From: Gemmatimonadota bacterium
Lineage (GTDB): Bacteria > Gemmatimonadota > Gemmatimonadetes > Palauibacterales > Palauibacteraceae
DNA length: 13,994 nucleotides
Assembly: GCA_046758745.1 (NCBI GenBank)
Contig: JBHIAV010000061.1
Span: forward strand, 1 to 13,994
Reading direction: 5' to 3'
In this document: in pieces, positions 837-13,464 of the stretch
Layout of the letters: every line of letters begins with the position of its first letter
Position numbering within the stretch: the first letter of the stretch is position 1
Position numbers and translations under genes: made by a program
The notes under the pieces: model-generated
Database searches by the model: none
What the model was told of the DNA's origin: nothing
What the model saw: only the letters and a program-made list of their open reading frames with translations

Positions 837-1661
837 ATGCACGAGGATCGACAGACCCCCGAGCTGATCGCCCTCATCCTCCTCTTCCTCGGCATCACGA
901 CCTTCACCGTCGTCGGCTTCGCCACGAAGGAGTGGCTGCCCGTCGCCGCCTCGCGACACGCGGCCGGCGTGGATGGGGTGATCCGATATCTGCTCCTCAC
1001 CACGGGGGCCATCCTCGTGCTCGGGACATTGGCACTCACCGCCTTCCTGTGGCGATACGGCAGGGGGCGGCCGACGCGCTCGCCACGGACGACCCCGAGG
1101 GCGGAGCGCTGGTGGTCGCTCATTCCGGTGCTCGGCATGGCCCTCATCGCCGAAGCGGGCGTGCTCCTCAAGGGCCTCCCGGTGTGGGAGCAGGTGTACG
1201 GCCCGCCGCCCGAGGACGCGCTCGTCGTCGAGGTGACCGGGAAGCAGTTCGAGTGGATCGTCCGCTACCCGGGCCGGGACGGCGCGTTCGGCCGCACGGC
1301 TCCCGCTCTCATCGATGACCGGACCAACCCCGCCGGACTCGACGAGGACGACCCGGCGGGGCGTGACGATGTGGTATTTCGAAAAGCGCTCCACCTACCC
1401 GTCGGGCAAACCGTCCACCTGAGGCTTCGCGCCCGCGACGTGCTGCACAGCTTCACGGTCCCTGCCTTCCGTGTCAAACAGGACGTCGTTCCGGGCATCG
1501 TGACGAGGACCGTGTTCGTCCCGACGCGACCCGGCGAGTACGCGATGGGGTGCGCTGAGCTATGCGGCATGGGTCACTACCGGATGGGCGGCACCGTGTT
1601 CGTGCACTCGCCGGAGGACTTCGAACGGTGGCTCGATCAGCAGACCGGGTGGTTCGAATGA
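837..1661 (+). CDS. coxB: Cytochrome c oxidase subunit II (CuA type, no fused cytochrome c), 274 aa
   Basis: N-terminal TM helices; VEVTGKQFEW aromatic loop; CuA ligands DVLHSF...CAELCGMGHYRM; GGGAG RBS upstream; stop overlaps the next start (ATGA, 1658-1661). Confidence 0.97.
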   Translation: MHEDRQTPELIALILLFLGITTFTVVGFATKEWLPVAASRHAAGVDGVIRYLLLTTGAILVLGTLALTAFLWRYGRGRPTRSPRTTPRAERWWSLIPVLGMALIAEAGVLLKGLPVWEQVYGPPPEDALVVEVTGKQFEWIVRYPGRDGAFGRTAPALIDDRTNPAGLDEDDPAGRDDVVFRKALHLPVGQTVHLRLRARDVLHSFTVPAFRVKQDVVPGIVTRTVFVPTRPGEYAMGCAELCGMGHYRMGGTVFVHSPEDFERWLDQQTGWFE

Positions 1662-3412
1662 GCGCGGCACACGCTCCGCAGGGCTTCTGGAGAAGGTACG
1701 TCTTCAGCACGGACCACAAGACGATCGGGAAGCAGTACCTGCTGACCGGCCTCCTCATGGGAATCTTCGGCGTCGCGTGGTCGATCCTCATCCGCCTGCA
1801 GCTCGCCTGGCCGGACGCCACCTGGCCTGTGCTGGGAAGGCTCCTCCCCGGCCTGTTCGAAAGCGGGGTGCTGCTGCCGGAGCGCTACCTGAGCCTGGTC
1901 ACCATGCACGGGACGGTCATGATCTTCTTCGTGGTCTCCTTCGCGCTGGTGAGCGGGTTCGGCAACTTCATCATCCCGCTCCACGTCGGGGCGCGGGACA
2001 TGGCGTACCCCTTCCTCAACATGCTCTCCTACTGGATCATCGTGCCGGCCTGCCTCCTCATGCTCGGCTCGTTCTTCGTCCCGGACGGGGCGGCGGCGGC
2101 CGGCTGGACCGTCTACCCGCCCCTCTCCGCCCTACCGGAGGCGGTGCCCGGATCGGGGGCCGGACAGACGCTGTGGCTGCTGGCGATGGCGCTGTTCATC
2201 GTCTCCTTCACCATGGGGAGCCTCAACTTCGTCACCACGATCCTCAACCTCCGCACCCGCGGGATGTCGATGTTCCGGATGCCGCTGACCGTGTGGACGC
2301 TGTTCATCGCGTCGATCCTCGGCCTCCTGGCCTTCCCGGCCATCACCGCGGCGGCGATCATGCTGCTGCTGGATCGCCTCGGGGGGACGAGCTTCTTCCT
2401 GCCCGAGGGGCTGGTGCTCGGGGGACGCCTCCTGGAGACCGGGGGCGGGACGCCTCTCCTCTTCCAGCACCTCTTCTGGTTCATGGGGCATCCGGAGGTG
2501 TACGTGCTCGTCCTCCCGGCGGTGGGGATCGCCTTCGACGTGCTGGCGGCCTTCGGGCGGCGGCCGGTGTTCGGGTACCGGACGTCGGTTTGGTCGCTGG
2601 TCGTGATCGCCTTCCTAAGCATGATCGTGTGGGGGCATCACATGTTCACCAGCGGGATGAACCCCTACCTCGGCGAGTACTTCTCGATCGCCACCGTCGC
2701 GATCACCGTGCCGTTCGCCGTGCTGGGGATGAACCTCATCGCGAGCCTGTGGCGCGCGCGGATCCGGCTGACCTCGGCGATGCTCTTCGCCCTCGGCATC
2801 GTGGCCGCCATCGGCATCGGCGGGCTCGGTGGACTGTGGCTCGGGACGGCGACGTCGGACATGTACCTGCACGACTCGTACTTCGTCGTCGGCCACTTCC
2901 ACTTCATGATCGGCACGGTGACGCTCTTCGGCGTGTTCGCCGCCAGCTACTACTGGTTCCCGAAGATGTTCGGGCGGTTCATGAGCGAGAGGCTGGGCAA
3001 GATCCACTTCTGGCTGACCGCCGCGACGGTCTTTCCGGCATTTGTCTCCATGCACTACCTGGGCCTTGCCGGGCACCTGCGGCGCCTGTACGACCCGACG
3101 GCATACGGGTACGCCGAGCCGACCCAGTGGCTGAACGTCTTCATCACGATCGCGCTGCTCGCCGCCATCGCCGGCCAGCTCGTCTACCTGGCGAACTTCT
3201 TCTGGAGCCTGTTCCGCGGCGAGCGGGCGGGGGCCAACCCCTGGGAGGCCGCGTCGCTGGAGTGGACGGCTGCCTCGCCGGCGCCGCATCTGAACTGGGA
3301 GGAGCTGCCTGCGGTGTACCGGGGGCCTTACGAGTACCGGGTGGACGGGCTGCGGGACGGGTACCGCCCGCAGGCGGCGCCGCCGGCCGAGGTTGAGGCG
3401 ACGGTGCGGTGA
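1658..3412 (+). CDS. coxA: Heme-copper oxidase subunit I, A1 type (584 aa), with atypical K-channel
   Basis: STDHKTIG, TMHGT (heme a His), GFGNF and ARDMAYPFLN (D-channel Asn/Asp), GWTVYPPLS, FWFMGHPEVY (A1 Glu, crosslink Tyr), VWGHHMF (CuB), LHDSYFVVGHFH, LRRLY. Start taken at the ATGA overlap with coxB. Confidence 0.97.
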   Translation: MSAAHAPQGFWRRYVFSTDHKTIGKQYLLTGLLMGIFGVAWSILIRLQLAWPDATWPVLGRLLPGLFESGVLLPERYLSLVTMHGTVMIFFVVSFALVSGFGNFIIPLHVGARDMAYPFLNMLSYWIIVPACLLMLGSFFVPDGAAAAGWTVYPPLSALPEAVPGSGAGQTLWLLAMALFIVSFTMGSLNFVTTILNLRTRGMSMFRMPLTVWTLFIASILGLLAFPAITAAAIMLLLDRLGGTSFFLPEGLVLGGRLLETGGGTPLLFQHLFWFMGHPEVYVLVLPAVGIAFDVLAAFGRRPVFGYRTSVWSLVVIAFLSMIVWGHHMFTSGMNPYLGEYFSIATVAITVPFAVLGMNLIASLWRARIRLTSAMLFALGIVAAIGIGGLGGLWLGTATSDMYLHDSYFVVGHFHFMIGTVTLFGVFAASYYWFPKMFGRFMSERLGKIHFWLTAATVFPAFVSMHYLGLAGHLRRLYDPTAYGYAEPTQWLNVFITIALLAAIAGQLVYLANFFWSLFRGERAGANPWEAASLEWTAASPAPHLNWEELPAVYRGPYEYRVDGLRDGYRPQAAPPAEVEATVR

Positions 3413-4053
3413 GCGGCATCGGAGGGGACGGGGAGGCGCTTCCAAGGAGCACGGCCGGCGGGGCTCAGGGGGATGGGATATCGGCCGGAGCGGTAGTAGC
3501 GCTCGGGCACGCCCCGCCGGCCCCCGGACCGTACCCGATCGGGCTGGCGGCGATCCTGGCCACCGTCGGCATGCTCTTCGCCGCCTTCACGGCAGCGCTG
3601 CTGGTGCGCCGGACCGGCGCGGATTGGGTCCCGGTGCGCCTTCCGGGCATCGTGTGGCTGAACACCGCGCTGCTCGTCGCCTCGAGCGCCGCGGTCCAGC
3701 GGGCGCGGGGCGTGATGCGCCGTGGTGCCTCGGGGCCGGCAGTCCGCTGGCTGGCGGCCGGCAGCGTCCTGGGGCTTCTCTTCCTGGCCGGCCAGCTCGT
3801 CGCGTGGCGCATGCTCGCGGCCCGCGGCGTGTTCCTGCCGACCAACCCCCACGCCGCCTTCTTCTACACCCTCTCGGCGGTGCATGGGGCGCACGTGCTC
3901 GGGGGGCTGGGGGCTCTCGGCTGGACCCTGCGCCGGGCGGCCGGAGGCGCGTACACCGCCGCCCGGCACATCGGCCTCTCCCACGCCGCCATCTTCTGGC
4001 ACTTCGTAGGCGGCGTGTGGGTGTACCTTCTGACCCTGCTTTCGACCCTGTAG
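3409..4053 (+). CDS. coxC: Cytochrome c oxidase subunit III, first short copy
   Basis: MLFAAFTAA, WLNTALLVASS, FLAGQLVAW, FFYTLSAVHGAHVLGG and FWHFVGGVWVYL motifs; GTGA overlap with coxA. The true start may lie somewhat downstream. Confidence 0.9.
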   Translation: MSGIGGDGEALPRSTAGGAQGDGISAGAVVALGHAPPAPGPYPIGLAAILATVGMLFAAFTAALLVRRTGADWVPVRLPGIVWLNTALLVASSAAVQRARGVMRRGASGPAVRWLAAGSVLGLLFLAGQLVAWRMLAARGVFLPTNPHAAFFYTLSAVHGAHVLGGLGALGWTLRRAAGGAYTAARHIGLSHAAIFWHFVGGVWVYLLTLLSTL

Positions 4054-4061
4054 GAGGACCG

Positions 4062-4673
4062 ATGGCGAGTGTGGACGTACCGGCGGCCGAGGTTCACTGG
4101 CAGGGCGGGGTGTCGCCCTTCGGGGTGTCGTGGCAGAAGCTGATGATGTGGCTGTTCCTCATCACCGATGCCCTGCTCTTCGCCGGGTTCCTCGCCGCCT
4201 ACGGCTTCGAGCGGCTGGCGAGCGCCGCGTGGCCGGAGCAGGGCGATGTCTTTCCGATGCTCAAGATCGGGACCATGACGTTCGTCCTCATCACCTCGAG
4301 CGCCACCATGGCCACGGCGGTGGGGGCGGCGCACCGCGGGGACCTCGCGCGGGCCGCCCGGTTCGTGCTCCTCACCGCGCTGGGCGGGCTCACCTTTCTC
4401 CTCTTCCAGGCGAGCGAGTGGACGAGCGTGATCCGGGAAGGGGCGCGTCTGACCCACAACCCGTGGGGCGTCCCGGCCTTCTCGGCCTTCTTCTTCACGA
4501 TCACCGGCTTCCACGGCACTCACGTCCTGATCGGCGTGATCATCCTGTCGGTGGTGGTGGCGCGCCTGCGGGCCGGCCGCACGTCGGGGTCGGGGGTGGA
4601 GCTGGCGGGCCTCTACTGGCACTTCGTGGACCTGGTATGGGTCTTCATCTTCACCTGCTTCTATCTGATCTGA
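4062..4673 (+). CDS. coxC: Cytochrome c oxidase subunit III, second short copy (203 aa)
   Basis: AGGAGG RBS at 4052-4057; WQGGVSPFGVSWQKLMMWLFLITDALLF, TFVLITSSATM, FFFTITGFHGTHV, GLYWHFVDLVWVFIFTCFYL. Confidence 0.95.
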   Translation: MASVDVPAAEVHWQGGVSPFGVSWQKLMMWLFLITDALLFAGFLAAYGFERLASAAWPEQGDVFPMLKIGTMTFVLITSSATMATAVGAAHRGDLARAARFVLLTALGGLTFLLFQASEWTSVIREGARLTHNPWGVPAFSAFFFTITGFHGTHVLIGVIILSVVVARLRAGRTSGSGVELAGLYWHFVDLVWVFIFTCFYLI

Positions 4674-4711
4674 AGAAAGCGTTCACCCCGATTCCAGGGA
4701 GAGTGAGTGTG

Positions 4712-5005
4712 ATGGAAGGAGCCACGTCGTACCGCAGCTACTGGTTCGTGTGGGTCGTCCTCCTGATCCTGACCCTTTTCATGATCGCCGTGGAAGCGTC
4801 CGGACTGGCGCGGGCCGCGGCGGTGCTCATCCTGGCCGGGGCGATGCTGACGAAGGCGACGCTGATCGCCGGCTGGTTCATGCACCTGCGATACGAGCGG
4901 ATGGCGCTGGTGGCGTGTGTGGCGGTGGGAATCCTGGCGACGGCGGCTTTTCTCTTCTTCCTCATCGCCACGGACGGCGTTTCGATGGCTCGGCTCGCCG
5001 CCTGA
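4712..5005 (+). CDS. Cytochrome c oxidase subunit IV family protein (97 aa)
   Basis: Three TM segments with YWFVWVVLLILT...KATLIAGWFMHLRYE (prokaryotic subunit IV FMHL motif); last gene of the cox cluster; purine-rich RBS upstream. Confidence 0.88.
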   Translation: MEGATSYRSYWFVWVVLLILTLFMIAVEASGLARAAAVLILAGAMLTKATLIAGWFMHLRYERMALVACVAVGILATAAFLFFLIATDGVSMARLAA

Positions 5006-5401: not shown

Positions 5402-7738
5402 TCACTCTGCCGCGGTCGCCGGGCCGATCCGCACCGCGCAGAACTTGAACTCCGGGATCTTCCCGAACGGATCGAGCTCGTCGATGGTGAGGACGTTGGC
5501 GCCGGCCTCCCGGAAGTGGAAGGGGATGAAGAGGGAGCCCGGGCTCACCTGCGTGGAGCTGCGGGCACGCAGGATGATGCTTCCGCGGCGCGACGCCACC
5601 TCGACCATGTCACCGTCGGCCAGGCCGTGGGCCGAGAGATCATCCGGGTGGATCTCCACGCTGGCCTCCGGCTCGATCGCGTCCAGGATGCGGGCCCGCC
5701 GGGTCATCGTCCCGGTGTGCCAGTGCTCGAGGAGGCGGCCGGTGTTGAGGACGAGCGGATACTCCTCATCGGGAAGCTCCTTGGCCGGGGCGAAGACGGC
5801 CGGAACGAACTTCCCGCGGCCGCTCGGTGTGGGGAAGCCGTCCCCGAACAGGACCTGGATCCCATCCCCGCTCTCCGGCTCGGGGCAGGGCCACAGCTTG
5901 CCCGTGAGGCCGAGGTTCCGATGGGTGAGGCCCGCGTAGGACGGCGCGAGGGAAGTGAACTCGTCGAACACGTCGGAAGGAGAGTCGTAGCGCATCGGAT
6001 AACCCATGCGGGTCGAGATCTCGCAGATGATCTCCCAGTCCTGCCTCGCCTGTCCCGGCGGGTCCAGCGCCCTCCGCCCCACCTGAACCCGCCGGTCCGT
6101 GTTCGTGTACGTGCCGGTCTTCTCGAAGAAGCTCGCGGCGGGGAGGATGACGTCGGCGAACTCGGCCGTCTCGGTGAGGAAGATGTCCTGCACGACGAGG
6201 AACTCGAGGCTCGACAGGGCCTTCCGCACCTTGTTCGTGTTGGGGTCGGAGAGGAAGGGGTTCTCCCCCATCATGTACATTCCGCGGATCTCGCCGCTGA
6301 GCGCGCCGGACATGATCTCGACCACGGTGAGACCGGCTTTCGGGTCGAGGGACGCGCCCCACGCCTTCTCGAACTTCGCGCGCACGTCCGGACTCTCCAC
6401 GCTCTGGTAGTCGGGGTACACCATCGGGATGAGCCCGGCGTCGGAGGCGCCCTGCACGTTGTTCTGCCCGCGGAGCGGGTGGAGGCCCGTCCCCGGCCGT
6501 CCGACGTTTCCGGTGAGCAGCATGAGGGAGATGAGGCCGCGCGCGTTGTCGGTGCCGTGCGTGTGCTGCGAGATCCCCATCCCCCAGAAGACGATCGCGG
6601 CCTCCGCGCGGCCGAACAGGCGTGCCGCCTCGACGATCCTCTCCTCCTCCACCCCGCAGAGGCGCGACGCCAGCTCGGGCGGGTAGTCCGCCACCACCTT
6701 CCGGAGCTCCTCGAACCCCTCGGTTCGCGTCTCGATGAAGCGGCGGTCTACCAGGTTCTCCTCGATCAGCACCTTCATCCACGCGTTGTACAGAGCCACG
6801 TCGGTGCCCGGGTTGATCTGGAGGAAGTGCGCCGCGTGATCTGCCATGTCGTGGCGGCGCGTGTCCACCACGACGAGCTTCGTGCGGCCGGACTTCGCCG
6901 CCTGCTTCATGAAGGTGGCGGCCACCGGGTGGTTGGCCGTCGTGTTCGAGCCTGCGATGAGCGCCACGTCGGCGTTCTTCACATCCGCGAAGACGTTCGT
7001 CACGGCGCCGGAGCCGATCGTCTCGAGCAGGGCGGCCACGGAGGAGGCGTGGCAGAGTCGGGTGCAGTGGTCCACGTTGTTCGTGCCGAAGACCGCCCGC
7101 ACCAGCTTCTGGAAGAGGTAGGCCTCCTCGTTGCTGCACTTCGCGCTCCCGAAGCCGGCGAGCGCGCCGGGGCCGTGCCGATCGCGGATCTCATTCAGGC
7201 GGGACGCCGTGAGGTCGAGCGCCTCCTCCCATGTCGCCTCTCGGAAGTGGGGGAGGACGTCGGCATAGTCCACCAGCCCGCCAGGCTTCCTTCCGCTCCC
7301 GGGACCCGTCGAGCCCCGTACCTCCGGGGAGAGAGGACCCTTGGGGTAGGCGGACTCGCGACGGATGAGAGCGGCGGTGAGGCGCTGCGGGTGCGTGGCG
7401 TACTCGAAGCCGAACCTCCCCTTCACGCACAGCCGCTCCCGGTTGACCGGACTGTCCCGGCCGTCGGCGTACGCGATTCGCCCCGATGCCTCGTCCACGA
7501 AGTAGCGGATCGCGCAGCCGACGCCGCAGTACGGGCACACCGAGTCGACGCGTCCAAGCTGGCCTTTGGGCGTGGAGAGGCGGAGCTGTCGCAGCAGCTC
7601 GGAGCGGTGCTCACGGATCGAGGCGCGCAGCTCCGGGGTCAGCGCGCCGTTCGGGTCGCGCAGGGCCAGGCTGTCGCCGCTCGGTCGGAGCTCGACGCCT
7701 CGCTGGCGAAGCTCCGCCAGCAGGGTCGTCGTGGTCAT
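5402..7738 (-). CDS. fdhA: Formate dehydrogenase catalytic Mo/W-bis-PGD subunit (Cys ligand, 778 aa) with N-terminal TubC_N-like domain
   Basis: [4Fe-4S] motif SVCPYCGVGC...LCVKGRFG, GSAKCSNEEAY, active-site NNVDHCTRLCH (Cys, not Sec), PLRGQNNVQGA, LNTGRLLEHWHTG, C-terminal PEFKFCAV. GGGAGGTG RBS and ATGA overlap at 7735-7738. Confidence 0.96.
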   Translation of the reverse strand: MTTTTLLAELRQRGVELRPSGDSLALRDPNGALTPELRASIREHRSELLRQLRLSTPKGQLGRVDSVCPYCGVGCAIRYFVDEASGRIAYADGRDSPVNRERLCVKGRFGFEYATHPQRLTAALIRRESAYPKGPLSPEVRGSTGPGSGRKPGGLVDYADVLPHFREATWEEALDLTASRLNEIRDRHGPGALAGFGSAKCSNEEAYLFQKLVRAVFGTNNVDHCTRLCHASSVAALLETIGSGAVTNVFADVKNADVALIAGSNTTANHPVAATFMKQAAKSGRTKLVVVDTRRHDMADHAAHFLQINPGTDVALYNAWMKVLIEENLVDRRFIETRTEGFEELRKVVADYPPELASRLCGVEEERIVEAARLFGRAEAAIVFWGMGISQHTHGTDNARGLISLMLLTGNVGRPGTGLHPLRGQNNVQGASDAGLIPMVYPDYQSVESPDVRAKFEKAWGASLDPKAGLTVVEIMSGALSGEIRGMYMMGENPFLSDPNTNKVRKALSSLEFLVVQDIFLTETAEFADVILPAASFFEKTGTYTNTDRRVQVGRRALDPPGQARQDWEIICEISTRMGYPMRYDSPSDVFDEFTSLAPSYAGLTHRNLGLTGKLWPCPEPESGDGIQVLFGDGFPTPSGRGKFVPAVFAPAKELPDEEYPLVLNTGRLLEHWHTGTMTRRARILDAIEPEASVEIHPDDLSAHGLADGDMVEVASRRGSIILRARSSTQVSPGSLFIPFHFREAGANVLTIDELDPFGKIPEFKFCAVRIGPATAAE
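7580..7738 (-). other. TubC_N / beta-hairpin docking domain-like segment (aa 1-53 of the FDH catalytic subunit)
   Basis: MTTTTLLAELRQRGVELRPSGDSLALRDPNGALTPELRASIREHRSELLRQLR fits the remembered pattern LLxELxxxGIxLxxxGxxLxxxAPxGALTxELxxxIxxHKxELLxxL of TubC/EpoB N-terminal docking domains. Confidence 0.8.
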
Positions 7739-8583
7739 ATCACCTCCCACCCGTCGCGCATCGCGCCGGGGCCGGCGGGCGCGGCCGGCTCGAAGAGGTC
7801 CTGCAGGGTGAGCGCCCCGGTGGGACACACCTTCTCACACTCCCCGCACGCGACGCACGTGCTGCGGCCCATCGGGTCGTCGAGGTCGAAGCCGATCCGC
7901 GTGGCGTACCCTTTTCCGGTGCGCCCGATCACCTGGTTCACCTGGATGTCGTCGCACGCCCGGATGCACCGGTCGCAGAGGATGCATGCCTGATGGTCCA
8001 CCCGGATGACCGGCGAGGAGGGGTCGATCGGCCGCCCGCCGCCCGCCGGGATCCCTCCGACCGGCCGGGTGCGCCCGCCGAGCGCGAGCTCGGCGACCGG
8101 CGGTCCGCCCACACCCCCGGGCGCCCTCTCGGGGCGCCTGCCGTCACGGTCCCCGCGGGCCGGCACGCTACCGGGGTGGGCGTCCCCGCCCGCGCGGTCG
8201 TGCGCGATCCCGTAGCGACGCGCCAGCTCGAGAAGCTCGTCCGCACCCGTCTTGAGCCTCGCCTCTCCATCGACCGGATAGTCGGAGAGAAGGAGCTCGA
8301 CGAGCCCGCGCCGGCACGCCTCGATCTTCTCGCTGGTCGTCTCTACGGACATGCCGGCCTCGGCCTTCCGGATGCAGGCGGCGGTGAGCCGCTTCTCGCC
8401 GACATCGACGAGGCAGAGCCGACATACCCCGACGGGGGCCAGTCGCGGATCGTGGCACAGCACGGGGATGTCGATCCCGAGGGCCCGCGCCGCATCCCAG
8501 ATCGTGGAGCGGGCGGACACGTCGACCTCCCGCCCGTCCACCGTCAGGCGGATGGTCTCCCTCGCCGTCGGGCTATCGCTCAT
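7735..8583 (-). CDS. FDH iron-sulfur subunit ([2Fe-2S] plus 2x[4Fe-4S]); detached N-terminal part of an FDH1/FdsA-type alpha subunit, 282 aa
   Basis: IPVLCH...GVCRLC...AAC [2Fe-2S] motif (C43, C54, C57, C70); CILCDRCIRAC and STCVACGECEKVCPTGAL. The NuoG N5-type HxxxCxxC motif is absent, as I recall for Methylorubrum FDH1 alpha. ATGA overlaps at both ends. Confidence 0.93.
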   Translation of the reverse strand: MSDSPTARETIRLTVDGREVDVSARSTIWDAARALGIDIPVLCHDPRLAPVGVCRLCLVDVGEKRLTAACIRKAEAGMSVETTSEKIEACRRGLVELLLSDYPVDGEARLKTGADELLELARRYGIAHDRAGGDAHPGSVPARGDRDGRRPERAPGGVGGPPVAELALGGRTRPVGGIPAGGGRPIDPSSPVIRVDHQACILCDRCIRACDDIQVNQVIGRTGKGYATRIGFDLDDPMGRSTCVACGECEKVCPTGALTLQDLFEPAAPAGPGAMRDGWEVI

Positions 8584-10256
8584 GGCGTACCTTGCGGCGC
8601 GCCTTCCCTCGTCCGCGTCGCCAGCGTGGTGCCGGGGTCCGGACCCTCACGGCGGGGAACCTCCTCGGGCCAGTGCTCCGCTGCGGAGAGGAGCGGGTTG
8701 AGCGCCACGTAGCCCAGCCCGCAGATCGACGTCTCGGAGAGGAGGAGGTCGAGCTTCTCGATCGTCTCCCAGTCCAGCGGCTCGCCGGACTCCATCGTCT
8801 GCGTCAGCATGGCGACGGCCTTCGCGGTTCCGTCGCGACACGGGACGCACTTTCCGCACGACTCGTTTCGGAAGAAGCGAACCACGTTGGCGGCGAGCGG
8901 GAGCATGGGCGTGCCCTCGGCGACCACCACGAGGGCGCCCGATCCCATCATGCTCCCCGCGTCGGCCAGCGACCCGAAGTCGATCGCCACGTCGGCCCGG
9001 TCGGCCGGGAGGAAGCGGGAGGAGGCGCCGCCGGGCGCGAACGCCTTCAGCGTCCGTCCACCGCTCACCCCACCCGCCACATCGATGAGCTCCGCGACCG
9101 GCGTGCCCATCGGGATCTCGTATACCCCCGGTCGCTCGACGTGGCCCGAGACGGCCATGAACTTGAGGCCCGCGTGGCCGTTCTTCCCCTGCGCCATCCA
9201 CCACGATGCGCCGCGCAGCGAGATGGCAGGCACGAAGGCGAAGGTCTCGACGTTGTTCATGAGGGTGGGCCGGCCCCACAGCCCGTGCTGGCCCGGGAAG
9301 GGAGGCTTGTTGCGGGGCTCGCCCCGGCGGTCCTCGAGTGCCTCGAGGAGGGCCGTCTCCTCACCCAGGATGTAGCCGCCCGGCGAGACGAAGATGTCGA
9401 GCTCGAAGTCGAAGCCGGAGCCCAGGATGTCCCGGCCGATGAGGCCGGCCTCCTCGACCCGGGCGAGCTCGGCCTCCAGAGCCTCGCGCGCGGACCGGTA
9501 CTCGTGCCGCACATAGATCGTCCCCCGGGAAGAGCCCACGGCGAAGCCGCCCAGAAGCATGCCCTCGATCACCAGGTGAGGGAGCTCCTCGAGGATGACC
9601 CGATCCTTGAAGGTGCCGGGCTCGCTCTCGTCTGCGTTGCAGATCACGTACTTCGGGCTCGCCGCCTCCGCCCGCACCAGCTCCCACTTGCGTCCCGTCG
9701 GGAAGCCGGCACCCCCCATCCCGCGTAGCCCGCTCTCCGTGAGAGCCGCCAGGAGGGCCTCGAGGGCTTCGGTGCGATCGGGGGTCTCGAGGAGCGCCCG
9801 CAGCGCCCCGTATCGCTCGCCGGGGCCGGCGTACGGGTCGCACCTCCACCGGCGGGTGGGCGGAGCCGCGCGTTCGAATCGGCCGCCACGCACCCGGGCG
9901 GCGAGGACGGACGGGTCGTCGGCCCTCGCCGGGGTTCCGTTCACGCGCACCGCCGGGGCGAGCTCGCAGCAACCGAGGCACGACGCCTCCTCCAGGCGGA
10001 CATCGGGTGAAGACCGGAGCGCAGAGCGGATCCGGGCGGCGAGCCCCTCTCCGCCGTTGAGGAAGCAGCTCATGTCGCGGCACACCGAGACGGTGATCGG
10101 CGCCGGAGGCTCGGTGAGGAAGTGAGGGTAGAAGGAGACGAGCTCCTGGAGTCGGTAGAGGGGAGCTCCCAGGCGCGCCGCAAGCTCTTGCAGGGAGTCG
10201 CTGTCCAGGAATCCCTGCTCGGCCTGCCGCGCCTCCAGCTCGTGGATTAGCCTCAT
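8580..10256 (-). CDS. NAD+-dependent FDH beta/diaphorase subunit, NuoE-NuoF fusion (558 aa)
   Basis: NuoE-like LVSFYPHF, CRDMSC...CLGCC [2Fe-2S]; NuoF-like SGLRGMGGAGFPTGRKW, CNADESEPGTFKDR, YILGEETAL, NNVET; [4Fe-4S] motif ESCGKCVPCRDG...SICGLG. Confidence 0.95.
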   Translation of the reverse strand: MRLIHELEARQAEQGFLDSDSLQELAARLGAPLYRLQELVSFYPHFLTEPPAPITVSVCRDMSCFLNGGEGLAARIRSALRSSPDVRLEEASCLGCCELAPAVRVNGTPARADDPSVLAARVRGGRFERAAPPTRRWRCDPYAGPGERYGALRALLETPDRTEALEALLAALTESGLRGMGGAGFPTGRKWELVRAEAASPKYVICNADESEPGTFKDRVILEELPHLVIEGMLLGGFAVGSSRGTIYVRHEYRSAREALEAELARVEEAGLIGRDILGSGFDFELDIFVSPGGYILGEETALLEALEDRRGEPRNKPPFPGQHGLWGRPTLMNNVETFAFVPAISLRGASWWMAQGKNGHAGLKFMAVSGHVERPGVYEIPMGTPVAELIDVAGGVSGGRTLKAFAPGGASSRFLPADRADVAIDFGSLADAGSMMGSGALVVVAEGTPMLPLAANVVRFFRNESCGKCVPCRDGTAKAVAMLTQTMESGEPLDWETIEKLDLLLSETSICGLGYVALNPLLSAAEHWPEEVPRREGPDPGTTLATRTREGAPQGTP

Positions 10257-10305
10257 CGCGCCCCGCTCGTCGGACGGATGCCCGGCTCATTGCTGATGCC
10301 CGTGC

Positions 10306-10334
10306 ATCTTAGAAGACGGGGGACGCCTTCACAA
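10306..10334 (-). promoter_or_regulatory. Putative sigma70 promoter of the fdh operon
   Basis: Minus strand TTGTGA-N17-TAAGAT, about 50 nt upstream of ATG 10256 and immediately after a terminator-like hairpin. Confidence 0.6.
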
Positions 10335-10357
10335 CGTCGGCTGTGGAGCTCCTTCGG

Positions 10358-10410
10358 AAAAGCAGGAAGGGCCGCCACCCCGGCGAGCCGACGGCTCGTC
10401 CGGGCGGTCC
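10358..10410 (-). terminator. Putative intrinsic terminator after the small ORF
   Basis: Extended GC hairpin centred on CGAGCC-N3-GGCTCG (10384-10398) with flanking CCGG/CCGG pairing, followed on the minus strand by TTCCTGCTTTT. Confidence 0.5.
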
Positions 10411-10435
10411 TATGCCTCCCGCACCGGGATCCTGA

Positions 10436-10588
10436 TCAGAACCGGCGCAAGACCTCGCGCCACCCCGCGAGCCCGTATCTGAACGGAGTGGGGAAGCTCT
10501 CCCCCTCCGCAGCGGATCGCTGCCGACGTGCCGGCCTCAGGGCCGCAAGGATCGCGAGCGTCGCGATGACCGTCAGCGCGTCCAGCAT
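10436..10588 (-). CDS. Putative 50-aa small protein with hydrophobic N-terminus (not in ORF track)
   Basis: Translated by hand: MLDALTVIATLAILAALRPARRQRSAAEGESFPTPFRYGLAGWREVLRRF. Strong GGAGGAGGT Shine-Dalgarno upstream and a terminator-like hairpin downstream. Confidence 0.55.
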   Translation of the reverse strand: MLDALTVIATLAILAALRPARRQRSAAEGESFPTPFRYGLAGWREVLRRF

Positions 10589-10661
10589 CTCACCACCACC
10601 TCCTCCGTTCCTCCCCGACTCCGTGCGGGGGCAGCCACGCCTCTACTCTTCTCTCAACCTC

Positions 10662-10690
10662 TTAACGGGTTCCGGGAGCCCCCGGTTTCC
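10662..10690 (-). promoter_or_regulatory. Possible ECF-sigma promoter for the small ORF
   Basis: Minus strand GGAAAC-N17-CGTTAA resembles the ECF AAC...CGT consensus, about 75 nt upstream of ATG 10588. Confidence 0.35.
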
Positions 10691-10810
10691 ACCCTCAACG
10701 CGTTCAAGCCGCCTTGTCGTAATGGCGCCTGCACTTGACAGGTCGGCGGACGCACGACCGACCGATCCGTCCCTTATGCAGGCATGGGCGGGCCGCTCGG
10801 CCGGGGACCC

Positions 10811-11725
10811 TCACGGCTCGACGCGAAGACCGAGACCGAGGAAGTCCTCGTCCTCCGCACGCAGCTGGCCGATCGGCGAGGGGCCGAAGTGACCCCGAGC
10901 CTCGAGGCGAAGCGCGGTCCCGCCGATCCGGAAGGCGACTCCCGCCGTCCCGGTTCCGGCCACGCGCTCCGCCTCCGTGGTGACCTGGAAATCGGTCGCC
11001 GCGAAGGGCCATGCGAAGCCGCGCTCCGCCCCGAAGCCGGGATTCCACTCGAGGCCGAAGCGGCCGGCCGCCCGCTCCACCCCGGAATTCGCGTGGAAGT
11101 TGTAGTCGGCACCGCCGTACAGCCGGAGCGAGGGGCCGAACCGAAGGGCCAGGAGCCCCTCGAAGCCGTCCCGGGTCACCTGCTGCTGCGGCCTGGGGAA
11201 CCGGGCGATGAACTCGTCCCCGATGTGGGAGCTGACGTGCAGGATCGTCGCCCGTCCCTCCCATCTGCCGCCACGCAGGGAGAGAGGGACGCCCACGCGG
11301 AAGTCGGTGTTGATCAGGTCCTTCTCCGAGGTCTCCATGGAGAAGCGCGAGAACATTCCCACCTCGAAGCCGATCACCACGGCGGCTCGGCCCGGGGCCT
11401 CGCCCTGAAGGCGCACCACGGGGATGCGGTGACCGATCGCCACCTCCGCCTCGACGCTCCTGCCCTCGAAGTCCGAGTCCGGCCGATCGGCGAGCAGGAT
11501 GGAGCCGCGGAACCCGACCTCACGGGGGGCGGCGAGAACGGGGGCGAAGGCGGCGGACTGCGGGAACCACCGCACCCCGGCGGAGGCCGCGGGTTCCTCC
11601 GATTCCGAGTGGCCCGCCCCCCTGGGCGCGTGCGCTTCCTGCTCGGCCTCGGCGCTGGACGCACGGATCAGGAAGGCGAGGGCGACGATCGACGCGCGCG
11701 CCGCGGTTCGTCGGGGGCAGGTCAT
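10811..11725 (-). CDS. DUF1207-family exported / probable outer-membrane protein (304 aa)
   Basis: Signal-peptide-like N-terminus (RRTAARASIVALAFLIRASSAEA); family-like motifs FAPVLAAPRE, DLINTDFRVG, HVSSHIGDEF; alternating amphipathic beta strands ending FLGLGLRVEP. Confidence 0.8.
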   Translation of the reverse strand: MTCPRRTAARASIVALAFLIRASSAEAEQEAHAPRGAGHSESEEPAASAGVRWFPQSAAFAPVLAAPREVGFRGSILLADRPDSDFEGRSVEAEVAIGHRIPVVRLQGEAPGRAAVVIGFEVGMFSRFSMETSEKDLINTDFRVGVPLSLRGGRWEGRATILHVSSHIGDEFIARFPRPQQQVTRDGFEGLLALRFGPSLRLYGGADYNFHANSGVERAAGRFGLEWNPGFGAERGFAWPFAATDFQVTTEAERVAGTGTAGVAFRIGGTALRLEARGHFGPSPIGQLRAEDEDFLGLGLRVEP

Positions 11726-11820
11726 AGGCAGGTTCCCGTTGGGCGTGCCACTTGTGCGGGCGCGAGAATGTGGGGAGTGTACCGCGCGTCCACAACGCCT
11801 CGCGGAGTCATCGCGTGCGC

Positions 11821-13464
11821 ATGACTGCAAACCACGGATCCCGATCGACGAGCCCGGCCCGGGCCGGCTCCCTCGCGGAATGGTTGCTCCGACAGGGGCT
11901 GCTCCGTGGCCCGTTCCTCTTCGTCGACTACTGGGCGAGCGTGCTCCGTTTCGCCGGAGCCGTTCCGGAGGAACAGATACGGGTCGGGCTGGTGGATGAG
12001 ACGCTCTTCCGTCTCGGGCTCGACCGACCGGACCTCGAGGTGCCGCGGCTGCGCTACTACCTCCTCCTCTTCCTCGTCGGCCCGCTGCTCCTGCCCTTTC
12101 GTTTCTTTCGACGGCTCGGCCGCTACCGGATCCGCTTCCGTCGCGCGGTCGGGGACGAGGTGCTGAGCGCCCTTCGACGCTATCGGCTCTCTCTCGTGCC
12201 GTCGGGACGCGGGCGGGTGGATGTGAGCAAGGACGGGATCGAGCTGGCCGATGACGTCCTCGACCCCTACCTCATCGCCGGCTTTGCCAGCCCCTTCTTC
12301 GCGGCGTACAAGCTCCCGCTGGCCTCGCTGTCGGGGATCCTCCTCGTGGCGGCGCTCGTCCTCCTTCTCGGCTCGACCGGATCGCTCGGCCCCGTCGGCG
12401 ATCACCTGCTGCTCGCGGGCTTCCCTCTCCTGGTGATCGCGCTGTACGCGGTATATCGGGAGTGGGTCACCGCGGTCCTCGGAGCCACGCCGGTCCTCCT
12501 CGGGGCGGTGCTCGTCGATGTCCTCCGCTTCGACGTCTCGCAGGATTGGGTCCCCTTCCTCGGAGCGCTCGGCGGCCTCTTCGCCGTCTATCTGCTGATC
12601 GATTGGTTCTTCATGCCACGGCCGGTGCCGCCGGTGCTCTTCCTGTACTGTGCAGACGGGCCCGGACGGCCGTACCGGCGACAGGGCGACGCTCCCTACT
12701 GGCTGACGGGGAGGGTGTACTGGGTGTGGCGGTACCTCATGCTGACCCCGGCCGAGCTGAATAAGTTCTGGGAGCGCGACTGGGAGCGCGTGGAGCTGTG
12801 GATCCGGGCTGATGGCCCGACGGCGGGCGCCCTCGAGTGGGTGGTGACCGATGCCCACTATCGCGAGCTCTGGATTCCGTACGAGAAGCTCGGCTTCGAG
12901 CCTTCGTTGGCTCGCAACCGCATCGCGGCCGTGCGGGCCGCGCAGGATGCGAGCGCGGGGACGTGGCTGTTGGAGGTCGACGCGAACCAGCTCTTCCACT
13001 CGCCGTTCTTCCGCGCGGTCTCCTTCCTCCCGGAGAGGGGACGGATCCCCGTGCGCCGCGTGGGACACATGGTGAAGGCCCTGTGGAAGCAGGCCCGTGA
13101 CGATCGAGTGGACGACTACCTGGAGATCCTCGAGCGGCTGCAGGTGAGGGAAGGGGTCGACATCCTGGAGGACGTGCCGGAGCTGATCGCGCACCTCACG
13201 GCGCGTCACATGCTCTCTCAACCGTGGCGGTACTGGCGTTACCCGCTGGGCGCGAACCGCCGGCTCGAGAGCCGGCTCTACGAGGGGCCGGGAACACGGG
13301 AGCGGGCGCCAGCCGCCGCGCCGGAGCTCCAGATCAAGGCGATGGTCGGCGTCGGACCGCCGGGCCGGGAGGCCGTCGATGACGGGATGGGTGGTGCCGG
13401 CCGTGCGCAGGGGGCGGAGCTAGCCGAGCCGACGGCGAAGCGGCCGGGGCAGGAGGAGCGATGA
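11821..13464 (+). CDS. Hypothetical multi-pass membrane protein (547 aa) with C-terminal Trp-rich DWE-motif domain
   Basis: Long ORF with typical high-GC3 codon use; about 5 hydrophobic segments in the N-terminal half; soluble domain with YWVWRY...ERDWERVELWI...WVVTDAHY; stop overlaps the lrp start (ATGA). Start codon uncertain. Confidence 0.85.
   Translation: MTANHGSRSTSPARAGSLAEWLLRQGLLRGPFLFVDYWASVLRFAGAVPEEQIRVGLVDETLFRLGLDRPDLEVPRLRYYLLLFLVGPLLLPFRFFRRLGRYRIRFRRAVGDEVLSALRRYRLSLVPSGRGRVDVSKDGIELADDVLDPYLIAGFASPFFAAYKLPLASLSGILLVAALVLLLGSTGSLGPVGDHLLLAGFPLLVIALYAVYREWVTAVLGATPVLLGAVLVDVLRFDVSQDWVPFLGALGGLFAVYLLIDWFFMPRPVPPVLFLYCADGPGRPYRRQGDAPYWLTGRVYWVWRYLMLTPAELNKFWERDWERVELWIRADGPTAGALEWVVTDAHYRELWIPYEKLGFEPSLARNRIAAVRAAQDASAGTWLLEVDANQLFHSPFFRAVSFLPERGRIPVRRVGHMVKALWKQARDDRVDDYLEILERLQVREGVDILEDVPELIAHLTARHMLSQPWRYWRYPLGANRRLESRLYEGPGTRERAPAAAPELQIKAMVGVGPPGREAVDDGMGGAGRAQGAELAEPTAKRPGQEER

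Follow-up and report, generated by a model that had tools for sequence, protein, structure and literature searches.

The DNA analyzed in this study (the window) is a stretch of 13,994 nucleotides, positions 1 to 13,994 of contig JBHIAV010000061.1, from a Gemmatimonadota bacterium of the family Palauibacteraceae (assembly GCA_046758745.1). It carries an operon whose products, judged from their domains, are a cytoplasmic NAD-linked (FdsABG-like) molybdenum or tungsten formate dehydrogenase (FDH). The alpha subunit of this enzyme is encoded by two overlapping genes, one for the iron-sulfur module (the Fe-S subunit) and one for the catalytic module (the Mo subunit). We found that the Mo subunit begins with a domain of the TubC_N family, the beta-hairpin docking (bHD) domain of nonribosomal peptide synthetases (NRPSs) and polyketide synthases (PKSs), and that the Fe-S subunit ends in a conserved four-residue pattern, W-E-x-aliphatic. 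Together, these elements probably represent a split-and-dock cassette of natural origin, which takes the place of the covalent linker in the FDH alpha subunit. We infer that the tail binds the domain and that this binding helps the two halves to assemble. Domains of the bHD type have so far been treated as a specialty of antibiotic assembly lines; here, one apparently rejoins the halves of a metalloenzyme that converts CO2 and formate. A literature search returned no report of formate dehydrogenases, or of respiratory enzymes of any kind, with a bHD domain, although supplementary survey tables (e.g., those of Kosol et al. 2019) may hold cases.

Docking domain and tail motif at the junction of the two genes

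The operon lies on the minus strand and consists of three overlapping genes at 8580-10256, 7735-8583, and 5402-7738, the second and third of which encode the two parts of the alpha subunit. The Fe-S subunit ends in PAAPAGPGAMRDGWEVI, that is, in AMRDGWEVI followed by the stop codon. The W-E-V-I codons occupy 7749-7738 and the stop codon 7737-7735, and the start codon of the Mo subunit gene (ATG, 7738-7736) overlaps this stop as ATGA. In the Mo subunit of 778 amino acids (aa), 63 residues precede VDSVCPYCGVGC, and the Cys motif CPYCGVGC is encoded at 7537-7514 (aa 68 to 75). A reading made earlier from the letters alone (the sequence-only reading) had described two separate genes, a ribosome-binding site (RBS), the ATGA overlap, a tail after CPTGAL, and an N-terminal extension, and all of these statements hold. 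It had also assigned the extension to TubC_N, which was confirmed by a Pfam hidden Markov model, by matches to PDB sequences, and by the predicted fold.

The Pfam TubC_N model (PF18563) matched aa 5 to 53 of the Mo subunit with an E value of 2.7e-12 and 47.0 bits (cut-off, 26), covering profile positions 3 to 51 of 52. When the 3.08-Mb genome, which is 87% complete, was searched in six frames, the FDH domain was the sole match, with 50.1 bits. Among PDB sequences, the domain matched the AerJ bHD (1.8e-7), EpoB (2.1e-6), TubC (1.2e-4), and the enacyloxin condensation protein 6cgo (Bamb_5915; 1.8e-4). An AlphaFold2 (AF2) model derived from eight FDH-type domains reached a predicted local distance difference test (pLDDT) value of 88.1 and displayed the topology alpha-beta-beta-alpha-alpha, with helices at residues 3 to 12, 35 to 43, and 45 to 55 and strands at residues 16 to 20 and 23 to 27. 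The top 11 PDB matches to this model in Foldseek were all NRPS/PKS bHD docking domains, three rhabdopeptide domains included. Ten of them gave TMq values of 0.77 to 0.87, such as EpoB 5t81 (0.85, with a root mean square deviation of 0.9) and AerJ 8aqq (0.87), and TubC 2jug gave 0.53. On the basis of sequence matches and model, the N-terminal extension of the Mo subunit is a beta-hairpin docking domain.

This domain begins at residue 1, and in relatives an unconserved stretch of 8 to 10 residues separates it from the Cys motif. Such a linker is shorter than the approximately 20 residues given for bHD domains in a review (PMC9113145). Across at least three genera, the open frame was kept with 20 invariant positions, and identity among relatives was 54 to 61% for the domain, compared with about 76% for the whole protein. 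A search restricted to aa 1 to 62 returned one match only, an NRPS, with a word index too coarse for a domain of this length. A profile of eight FDH-type domains retrieved 2114 representatives at E values up to 0.001 among 1.84 billion proteins. Among the best 150 of these 2114, 149 match TubC_N, 19 contain a condensation domain, 2 are FDH fragments, and about 125 are proteins of 60 to 260 aa without any other Pfam family, many of which may be fragments. Scanning the 150 nearest TubC_N proteins against PHROGs revealed no phage family beyond NRPS-like ones. Judged from these proteins, the TubC_N fold is clearly used outside NRPSs, as the sequence-only reading had cautioned.

Relatives of the Mo and Fe-S subunits were counted among 120 listed metagenome and genome protein clusters each. 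The 120 Fe-S relatives comprised 27 fragments of fused forms and 93 stand-alone proteins, 23 of which end in W-E-x-[ILV], with V, Y, R, I, A, L, or W at x. In these 23 clusters, W at position -4 and E at position -3 are invariant, position -1 is always L, V, or I, and position -2 is free. Their tails extend 15 to 29 residues beyond CPTGAL and vary in sequence, with no conserved spacer column; disorder of the spacer was judged from composition and variability only. None of the remaining 70 stand-alone Fe-S subunits ends in W-E-x-[ILV]. Five of them, all from Gemmatimonadota and of a type that lacks the cassette, end in SLTILI plus four residues, as does locus L052, which is described below. The tails of the other 65, which are mostly 47 to 55% identical and spread over several phyla, are short and lack W among their last six residues; one of these 65 is a close relative (P0130) that is marked as partial by its source.

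At all eight genome loci that carry the docking domain, the upstream protein ends in W-E-[VL]-[ILV]. The tail occurs wherever the domain does and is missing where the domain is missing, so that the two elements are conserved together, as the sequence-only reading had led us to expect. Variation at tail position -2 relative to residues of the domain followed a pattern that tracks phylogeny (six matched pairs). Members of one genus (L035, L036, L037, and L040; P0137-P0154) carry a second W-[ED]-[ETG] directly after CPTGALSL-x-x, preceded by G, V, or A and located about 17 residues ahead of the terminal W-E-V-L. Some fused relatives carry SLW at this position. The second motif may have arisen by duplication or may provide a further contact.

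Distribution of the split and its history

PF18563 precedes the FDH domains in 44 of the 120 listed Mo subunit relatives (75 to 77% identity); TubC_N-FDH fusions recur in relatives. The nearest other Mo relatives (about 79% identity over the shared part) are single chains of 930 to 996 aa with the Fe-S module attached. With Mo subunit aa 1 to 70 as the query, matches were obtained in 33 of 401 Gemmatimonadota genomes, a sample that includes the window genome. FDH-linked matches were confined to the window genome and four others, all of the same family. We then considered 61 genomes of this family, 26 of which have an FDH locus, and examined every junction individually. Sixteen loci encode a fused alpha subunit, eight are split and have both domain and tail (the window genome, six of six genomes of one genus, and one of two of another), one is split without either element (L052), and one is cut by a contig end (L057). 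The 16 fused relatives join the two modules in one chain through a linker of roughly 20 to 40 residues. It is in this interdomain linker that the cassette sits, as had been claimed from the sequence. At L052, the Fe-S subunit tail ends in I-D-E-A-T, and the Mo subunit begins 13 residues ahead of the Cys motif, with no docking domain.

Since most family relatives are fused (16 of 26 loci), the split might be thought to reflect a frameshift introduced in sequencing or assembly, or a pseudogene derived from a normally fused alpha subunit. We give this explanation next to no credence. The same split, overlap, and 55-residue domain recur in 7 other species genomes and in the 44 clusters, and a contig from another sample, one not flagged as the source, spans 7511-7795 with 0 differences and no insertion or deletion listed; together, these observations rule out an assembly artifact. 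Moreover, the insert is a folded domain, unlike the product of a frameshift. In the same samples, contigs from other organisms show matches to the window only at 7512-7546 and 7942-7986, the two conserved Cys-motif stretches, which are separated by 186 letters in those contigs and by 395 in the window. They probably derive from co-resident relatives in which the linker is short and plain.

A tree of the catalytic part was built with FastTree from 121 relatives, of which 119 rows remained after removal of sequences that lacked the Cys motif, had fewer than 650 residues after it, or were identical. The 42 domain-bearing rows and two cassette-less rows formed one group of 44 (SH-like support, 96), in which the cassette-less pair had as its sister a domain-bearing sequence from the same genus (support, 98). 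In a second tree of 38 chosen rows (IQ-TREE in quick mode, LG+G4), the split group of 15 rows obtained an SH-aLRT support of 93, and the cassette-less/domain-bearing sister pair one of 99. The first five residues of the cassette-less Mo subunit are those of its domain-bearing kin, consistent with an internal deletion. The simplest reading of these sequences is that the cassette entered a fused ancestor once and that tail and domain later disappeared together, also once, with the root and the order of events not proven.

Other matches to aa 1 to 70 in the phylum included 13 thioesterase-like proteins, 10 condensation-domain proteins, and two small zinc-ribbon proteins. At 21 of the 23 NRPS/thioesterase junctions, the end of the upstream gene and the start of the domain match are at most 17 bases apart; the other two have no nearby upstream gene end. 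Several of these junctions are GTGA or ATGA overlaps. The upstream tails follow R-[EV]-E-[IFV]-x-[LV]-stop (13 of 13 of the thioesterase type) or close variants of it (8 of 10 of the condensation type). Strand beta2 of the docking domain reads L-[AL]-L-[RS]-D in the FDH type and mostly L-R-C-[NT]-A in the NRPS/thioesterase type of the phylum. The position usually taken by Arg is hydrophobic in the FDH type, with Arg or Ser two residues later, and the FDH motif keeps one invariant Glu. According to the review cited above, the motif contacts beta2 with its five terminal residues, by means of two salt bridges and a hydrophobic face, and salt bridges between charged residues of beta2 and the motif are stated to be ubiquitous in bHD pairs (PMC9113145). 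The sequences leave room for charge pairing between FDH tail and beta2 that may have been re-coded.

The thioesterase-like proteins (L007-L012, L014, L015, L017, L019, and L021-L023) form a family of roughly 350 to 500 aa with an N-terminal docking domain. Each of their genes follows an NRPS gene with the R-[EV]-E-[IFV]-x-[LV]-stop ending, whose stop codon lies within 11 bases of the start of the domain match, and the codons of this motif (GAGGAG...) also act as an RBS. Small proteins that consist of TubC_N and, after it, a zinc-ribbon-like CxxC...CxxC end were observed without an adjoining NRPS gene (L016:1480-1761 and L020:1498-1761), and P0249, P0255, P0296, P0364, P0374, and others are of the same kind. 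The gene upstream of the L020 protein showed weak matches to DUF1643 and DUF3987.

RBS overlap, alternative explanations, and proposed mechanism

The last codons of the Fe-S subunit gene double as a translation signal. TGG-GAG-GTN reads GGGAGGT, a strong RBS close to the overlapping start (spacing of 4 bases in the window), and 4-base overlaps (ATGA, GTGA, or TTGA) were found in all relatives. The sequence-only reading had warned that W-E-V-I might simply be what the RBS and the overlap dictate. In a broader form of this explanation, the bHD fold is real, but W-E-x-aliphatic is not its ligand; the domain would grip the Fe-S module or another partner, or dimerize, and the tail would be kept as an RBS or pack elsewhere on the Mo subunit. 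We regard this as rather unlikely. It is true that TGGGAGGT is a near-perfect RBS before the overlapping start, that the PDB entry of the TubC domain has two chains, and that a fold found without an NRPS domain in about 125 of its 150 nearest proteins has other uses. An RBS, however, requires neither Trp nor a terminal aliphatic residue: L052 retains the ATGA overlap and a GAGG site yet encodes I-D-E-A-T-stop, and NRPS junctions use GAGGAG. Trp is the only residue at position -4, in 23 of 23 clusters and 8 of 8 loci, though Arg or Gly codons would suit the RBS equally well. At the 8 genome loci, all four Val codons are used at position -2, and the six codons found at the last position all specify aliphatic residues. 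As W and the terminal aliphatic residue are kept despite codon change, and in view of the L052 tail, the RBS overlap explains the motif only in part. The warning was thus justified in part, as to the overlap and the constraint on E and possibly on V, and it does not extend to W and the last residue. That tail and domain were lost jointly, and that the strand diverging from the NRPS type is beta2, to which the motif binds in solved systems, also speak for the tail as the ligand.

Several observations nevertheless weigh against docking by the tail, or limit what can be drawn from its conservation. Part of this conservation may lie at the RNA level, certainly for E and possibly for V. The FDH tail lacks the conserved basic residue, and with it the charge pattern, of the NRPS motifs and has W-E where those of the phylum have E-[IF], which makes it atypical of motifs of the bHD class. 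In one assembly line, as described in a 2026 report, a bHD domain can bind a globular upstream domain directly, and the tail motif is dispensable (PMC13324335); the tail therefore need not be the main contact. The co-occurrence counts come from kin, so that few of the events behind them are independent, perhaps a single gain and a single loss. Neither tree resolved the window protein as the sister of the remaining split forms; it stood at an unresolved fork together with their group, a single fused sequence, and the main clade of fused forms. Even so, placing all split forms, that of the window included, in one clade cost 8.0 log-likelihood units and was not rejected (p-AU, 0.21; IQ-TREE). Finally, the split persists without the cassette in one lineage (the L052 type), and many tail-less stand-alone Fe-S subunits exist in other phyla. 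Because a lineage has the split but no cassette, docking is not strictly required for a split FDH, and the docking pair is probably an aid to assembly or stability, not an obligatory connector. A complex prediction for Fe-S subunit aa 236 to 282 (23-row alignment) with docking domain aa 1 to 62 gave scores of 0.22 and 0.23 compared with a mark of 0.32, which is evidence neither way.

The persistence of the split without docking parts, both in the L052 lineage and commonly in other phyla, would also suit a neutral relic, that is, a piece of an NRPS junction that recombined into the FDH linker and split the gene but plays no role in assembly. So would the faster evolution of the docking domain relative to the catalytic body. 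We consider such a relic improbable. The domain keeps its open frame, its invariant positions, and a confidently predicted fold across the genera sampled, and it is retained in the 44 clusters. The pattern of the four-residue end is invariant while the adjoining spacer drifts freely, and the tail is a distinct conserved motif, not a copy of the NRPS motif.

For the preferred split-and-dock arrangement, the following mechanism can be proposed. The alpha subunit is cut inside the flexible linker between the Fe-S and catalytic modules, and the cut holds a cassette with a layout like that of NRPS/PKS junctions: a spacer with C-terminal W-E-x-aliphatic, the stop/start overlap, the docking domain, a short linker, and the FDH body. 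The 4-base overlap would couple the synthesis of the two halves and keep it equimolar. The C-terminal peptide would join the hairpin of the docking domain as an extra strand, tethering the halves noncovalently. Tethering would raise their local concentration, so that the large Fe-S/Mo interface could form and bring the clusters to electron-transfer distance. The idea that docking might allow electron-transfer modules to be exchanged found no support: only a single such domain occurs in the genome, together with a single FDH of this type and one further Fer2_4-type gene. A role in choosing the right partner among several FDHs lacked support on the same grounds.

More tentatively, the cassette could be a portable split-and-dock unit from the natural-product world, re-coded to a private specificity (W-E-x-aliphatic with an altered beta2) so as to hold the FDH halves, with bHD domains being general connectors beyond NRPSs and PKSs. 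Such general-purpose use is hinted at by the small non-NRPS proteins, about 125 in number, among the 150 nearest relatives. If the split-and-dock reading is true, evolution can split a multicluster redox enzyme at a linker and keep its function by means of a small transferable connector. It would then also offer a pair that is ready for use in FDH engineering and in assembling electron-transfer enzymes from modules, and that is probably orthogonal to the NRPS type. Natural controls are available within one bacterial family, in the form of fused enzymes and of split enzymes with and without the cassette.

Operon context and comparison with known systems

Features of the FDH operon in the window, with their coordinates
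Feature	Coordinates	Strand	Evidence
Diaphorase subunit, 558 aa	8580..10256	-	Translation; Pfam Complex1_51K 1.5e-41, 2Fe-2S_thioredx 7.8e-21, NADH_4Fe-4S 1.6e-20; nuoF_fam 1.6e-130
Fe-S subunit, 282 aa	7735..8583	-	Pfam Fer2_4 1.8e-19, Fer4_Nqo3, Fer4_7
Fe-S subunit C-terminal tail, aa 259-282 (24 aa after CPTGAL)	7738..7809	-	Alignment of relatives
Putative short linear docking motif W-E-V-I (family pattern W-E-x-[ILV], extreme C-terminus)	7738..7749	-	Sequence, relatives
Translational coupling signals: GGGAGG (7748-7743) and ATGA stop/start overlap (7738-7735)	7735..7748	-	Sequence
Beta-hairpin docking (TubC_N) domain, Mo subunit aa 1-55	7574..7738	-	PF18563, PDB sequence matches, AF2 model, Foldseek
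Short variable linker from docking domain to FDH body, Mo subunit aa 56-63	7550..7573	-	Not conserved in relatives
Catalytic Mo/W-bis-PGD (pyranopterin guanine dinucleotide) module, Mo subunit aa 64-778	5402..7549	-	Molybdop_Fe4S4, Molybdopterin 3e-77, Molydop_binding 5e-33, TIGR01591

The body of the Mo subunit was identified as formate dehydrogenase alpha by the TIGR01591 equivalog (789.8 bits; cut-off, 666.25). It comprises the [4Fe-4S] motif CPYCGVGC, a molybdopterin domain with C229-H230, and a dinucleotide-binding domain, and both C229-H230 and CPYCGVGC are invariant in 20 relatives. From what is familiar of FdhF and FdsA, we take C229-H230 to be the metal-ligand Cys (or Sec) followed by His. 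The diaphorase subunit, whose gene shares 4 bases with that of the Fe-S subunit, unites in one chain a NuoE-like [2Fe-2S] thioredoxin-like domain with a NuoF-like FMN/NADH-binding and 4Fe-4S domain, and it is the counterpart of FdsG and FdsB combined. The same operon hence holds one fusion (NuoE-like/NuoF-like) and one fission (the alpha subunit). No FdsD or FdhD homologue was recognized among the window genes in a Pfam scan.

The Fe-S subunit corresponds to the N-terminal module of an FdsA/NuoG-type alpha subunit, with one [2Fe-2S] domain and two Cys4 [4Fe-4S] motifs. Modules of the NuoG/FdsA type usually have a His-ligated [4Fe-4S] motif after the [2Fe-2S] domain. No such motif is present here; aa ~92 to 128 (8170-8310, minus strand) form a Cys-free helical segment (LLLSDYP...). 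The motif is likewise replaced by a Cys-free segment in all 18 relatives compared, both fused and split and from several phyla, which makes this a trait of the whole subfamily that is not tied to the split. Between the two halves of the Fe-S subunit, at aa ~128 to 185 (8029-8202, minus strand), lies a Gly/Pro/Arg-rich insertion that is longer in the window than in any of 22 aligned relatives and was modeled by AF2 with low confidence. For the whole Fe-S subunit, the mean pLDDT was 48, and residues 130 to 282 were all low, so that this model does not allow a disorder call specific to the tail.

On the plus strand, cytochrome c oxidase genes at 1562-5005, namely, COX1 (616 aa), a COX3-like gene (426 aa), and COX4_pro, converge on the FDH operon. 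On its other side, the region 10278-13464 contains, on both strands, long open reading frames of 204, 346, 570, and 499 aa without a Pfam match at E values up to 0.001. Given the G+C-rich DNA, some of these may not be genes.

NAD-dependent molybdenum FDHs of the FdsABG(D) type, such as those of Rhodobacter capsulatus and Cupriavidus necator and FDH1 of Methylorubrum, have a single-chain alpha subunit. The window FDH has in common with them the TIGR01591 catalytic module, the NuoG-like Fe-S module, and the NuoE/NuoF-like diaphorase. It differs in that the alpha subunit is split in the linker, where the docking cassette is found, in that the NuoE-like and NuoF-like parts are fused, and in that the Fe-S module lacks the His-ligated cluster motif. 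Split FDHs without the cassette, annotated as a "2Fe-2S iron-sulfur cluster-binding protein" beside a Mo subunit, resemble the window FDH in having a separate Fe-S chain that ends shortly after CPTGAL. They are represented by the 65 clusters from several phyla, the 5 Gemmatimonadota clusters, and L052, all with short tails that lack W-E-x-aliphatic. Where their partners were seen (L052, P0051, and P0053), the Mo subunit had no N-terminal domain. Complexes of the HylA/FdhF2 type also have a split FDH alpha subunit without docking parts.

The closest parallel to the proposed arrangement of the FDH halves is found in pairs of a short linear motif (SLiM) and a bHD domain, such as TubB-TubC, EpoA-EpoB, Kj12B-Kj12C, and Bamb_5917-Bamb_5915. 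As in the FDH, a domain of the same family and fold is located at the N terminus of the downstream protein and followed by a flexible linker, and a short C-terminal motif follows a disordered-looking spacer on the protein encoded just upstream, with a stop/start overlap between the genes. In contrast to these assembly lines, the FDH partners are not a carrier protein paired with a condensation-type domain but the two halves of a redox enzyme that belongs to primary metabolism. The window holds no NRPS or PKS gene, and the docking pair is flanked by FDH subunit and cytochrome oxidase genes. The motif also differs (W-E-x-aliphatic compared with R-E-E-[IF]-x-[LV] in the NRPS type of the phylum), as does strand beta2. 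In the review cited above, the only downstream partners listed for bHD domains are condensation (C), epimerization (E), cyclization (Cy), thioesterase (TE), and methyltransferase (MT) domains, a reductase, and a halogenase, all from natural-product pathways (PMC9113145). Closest among published ideas is engineered NRPS splitting, in which natural docking domain pairs have been inserted between modules (PMC7496407). There, as seems to have happened naturally here in a respiratory-type oxidoreductase, a chain was cut and its halves were rejoined by a SLiM/bHD pair; that arrangement, however, is man-made and lies within an NRPS.

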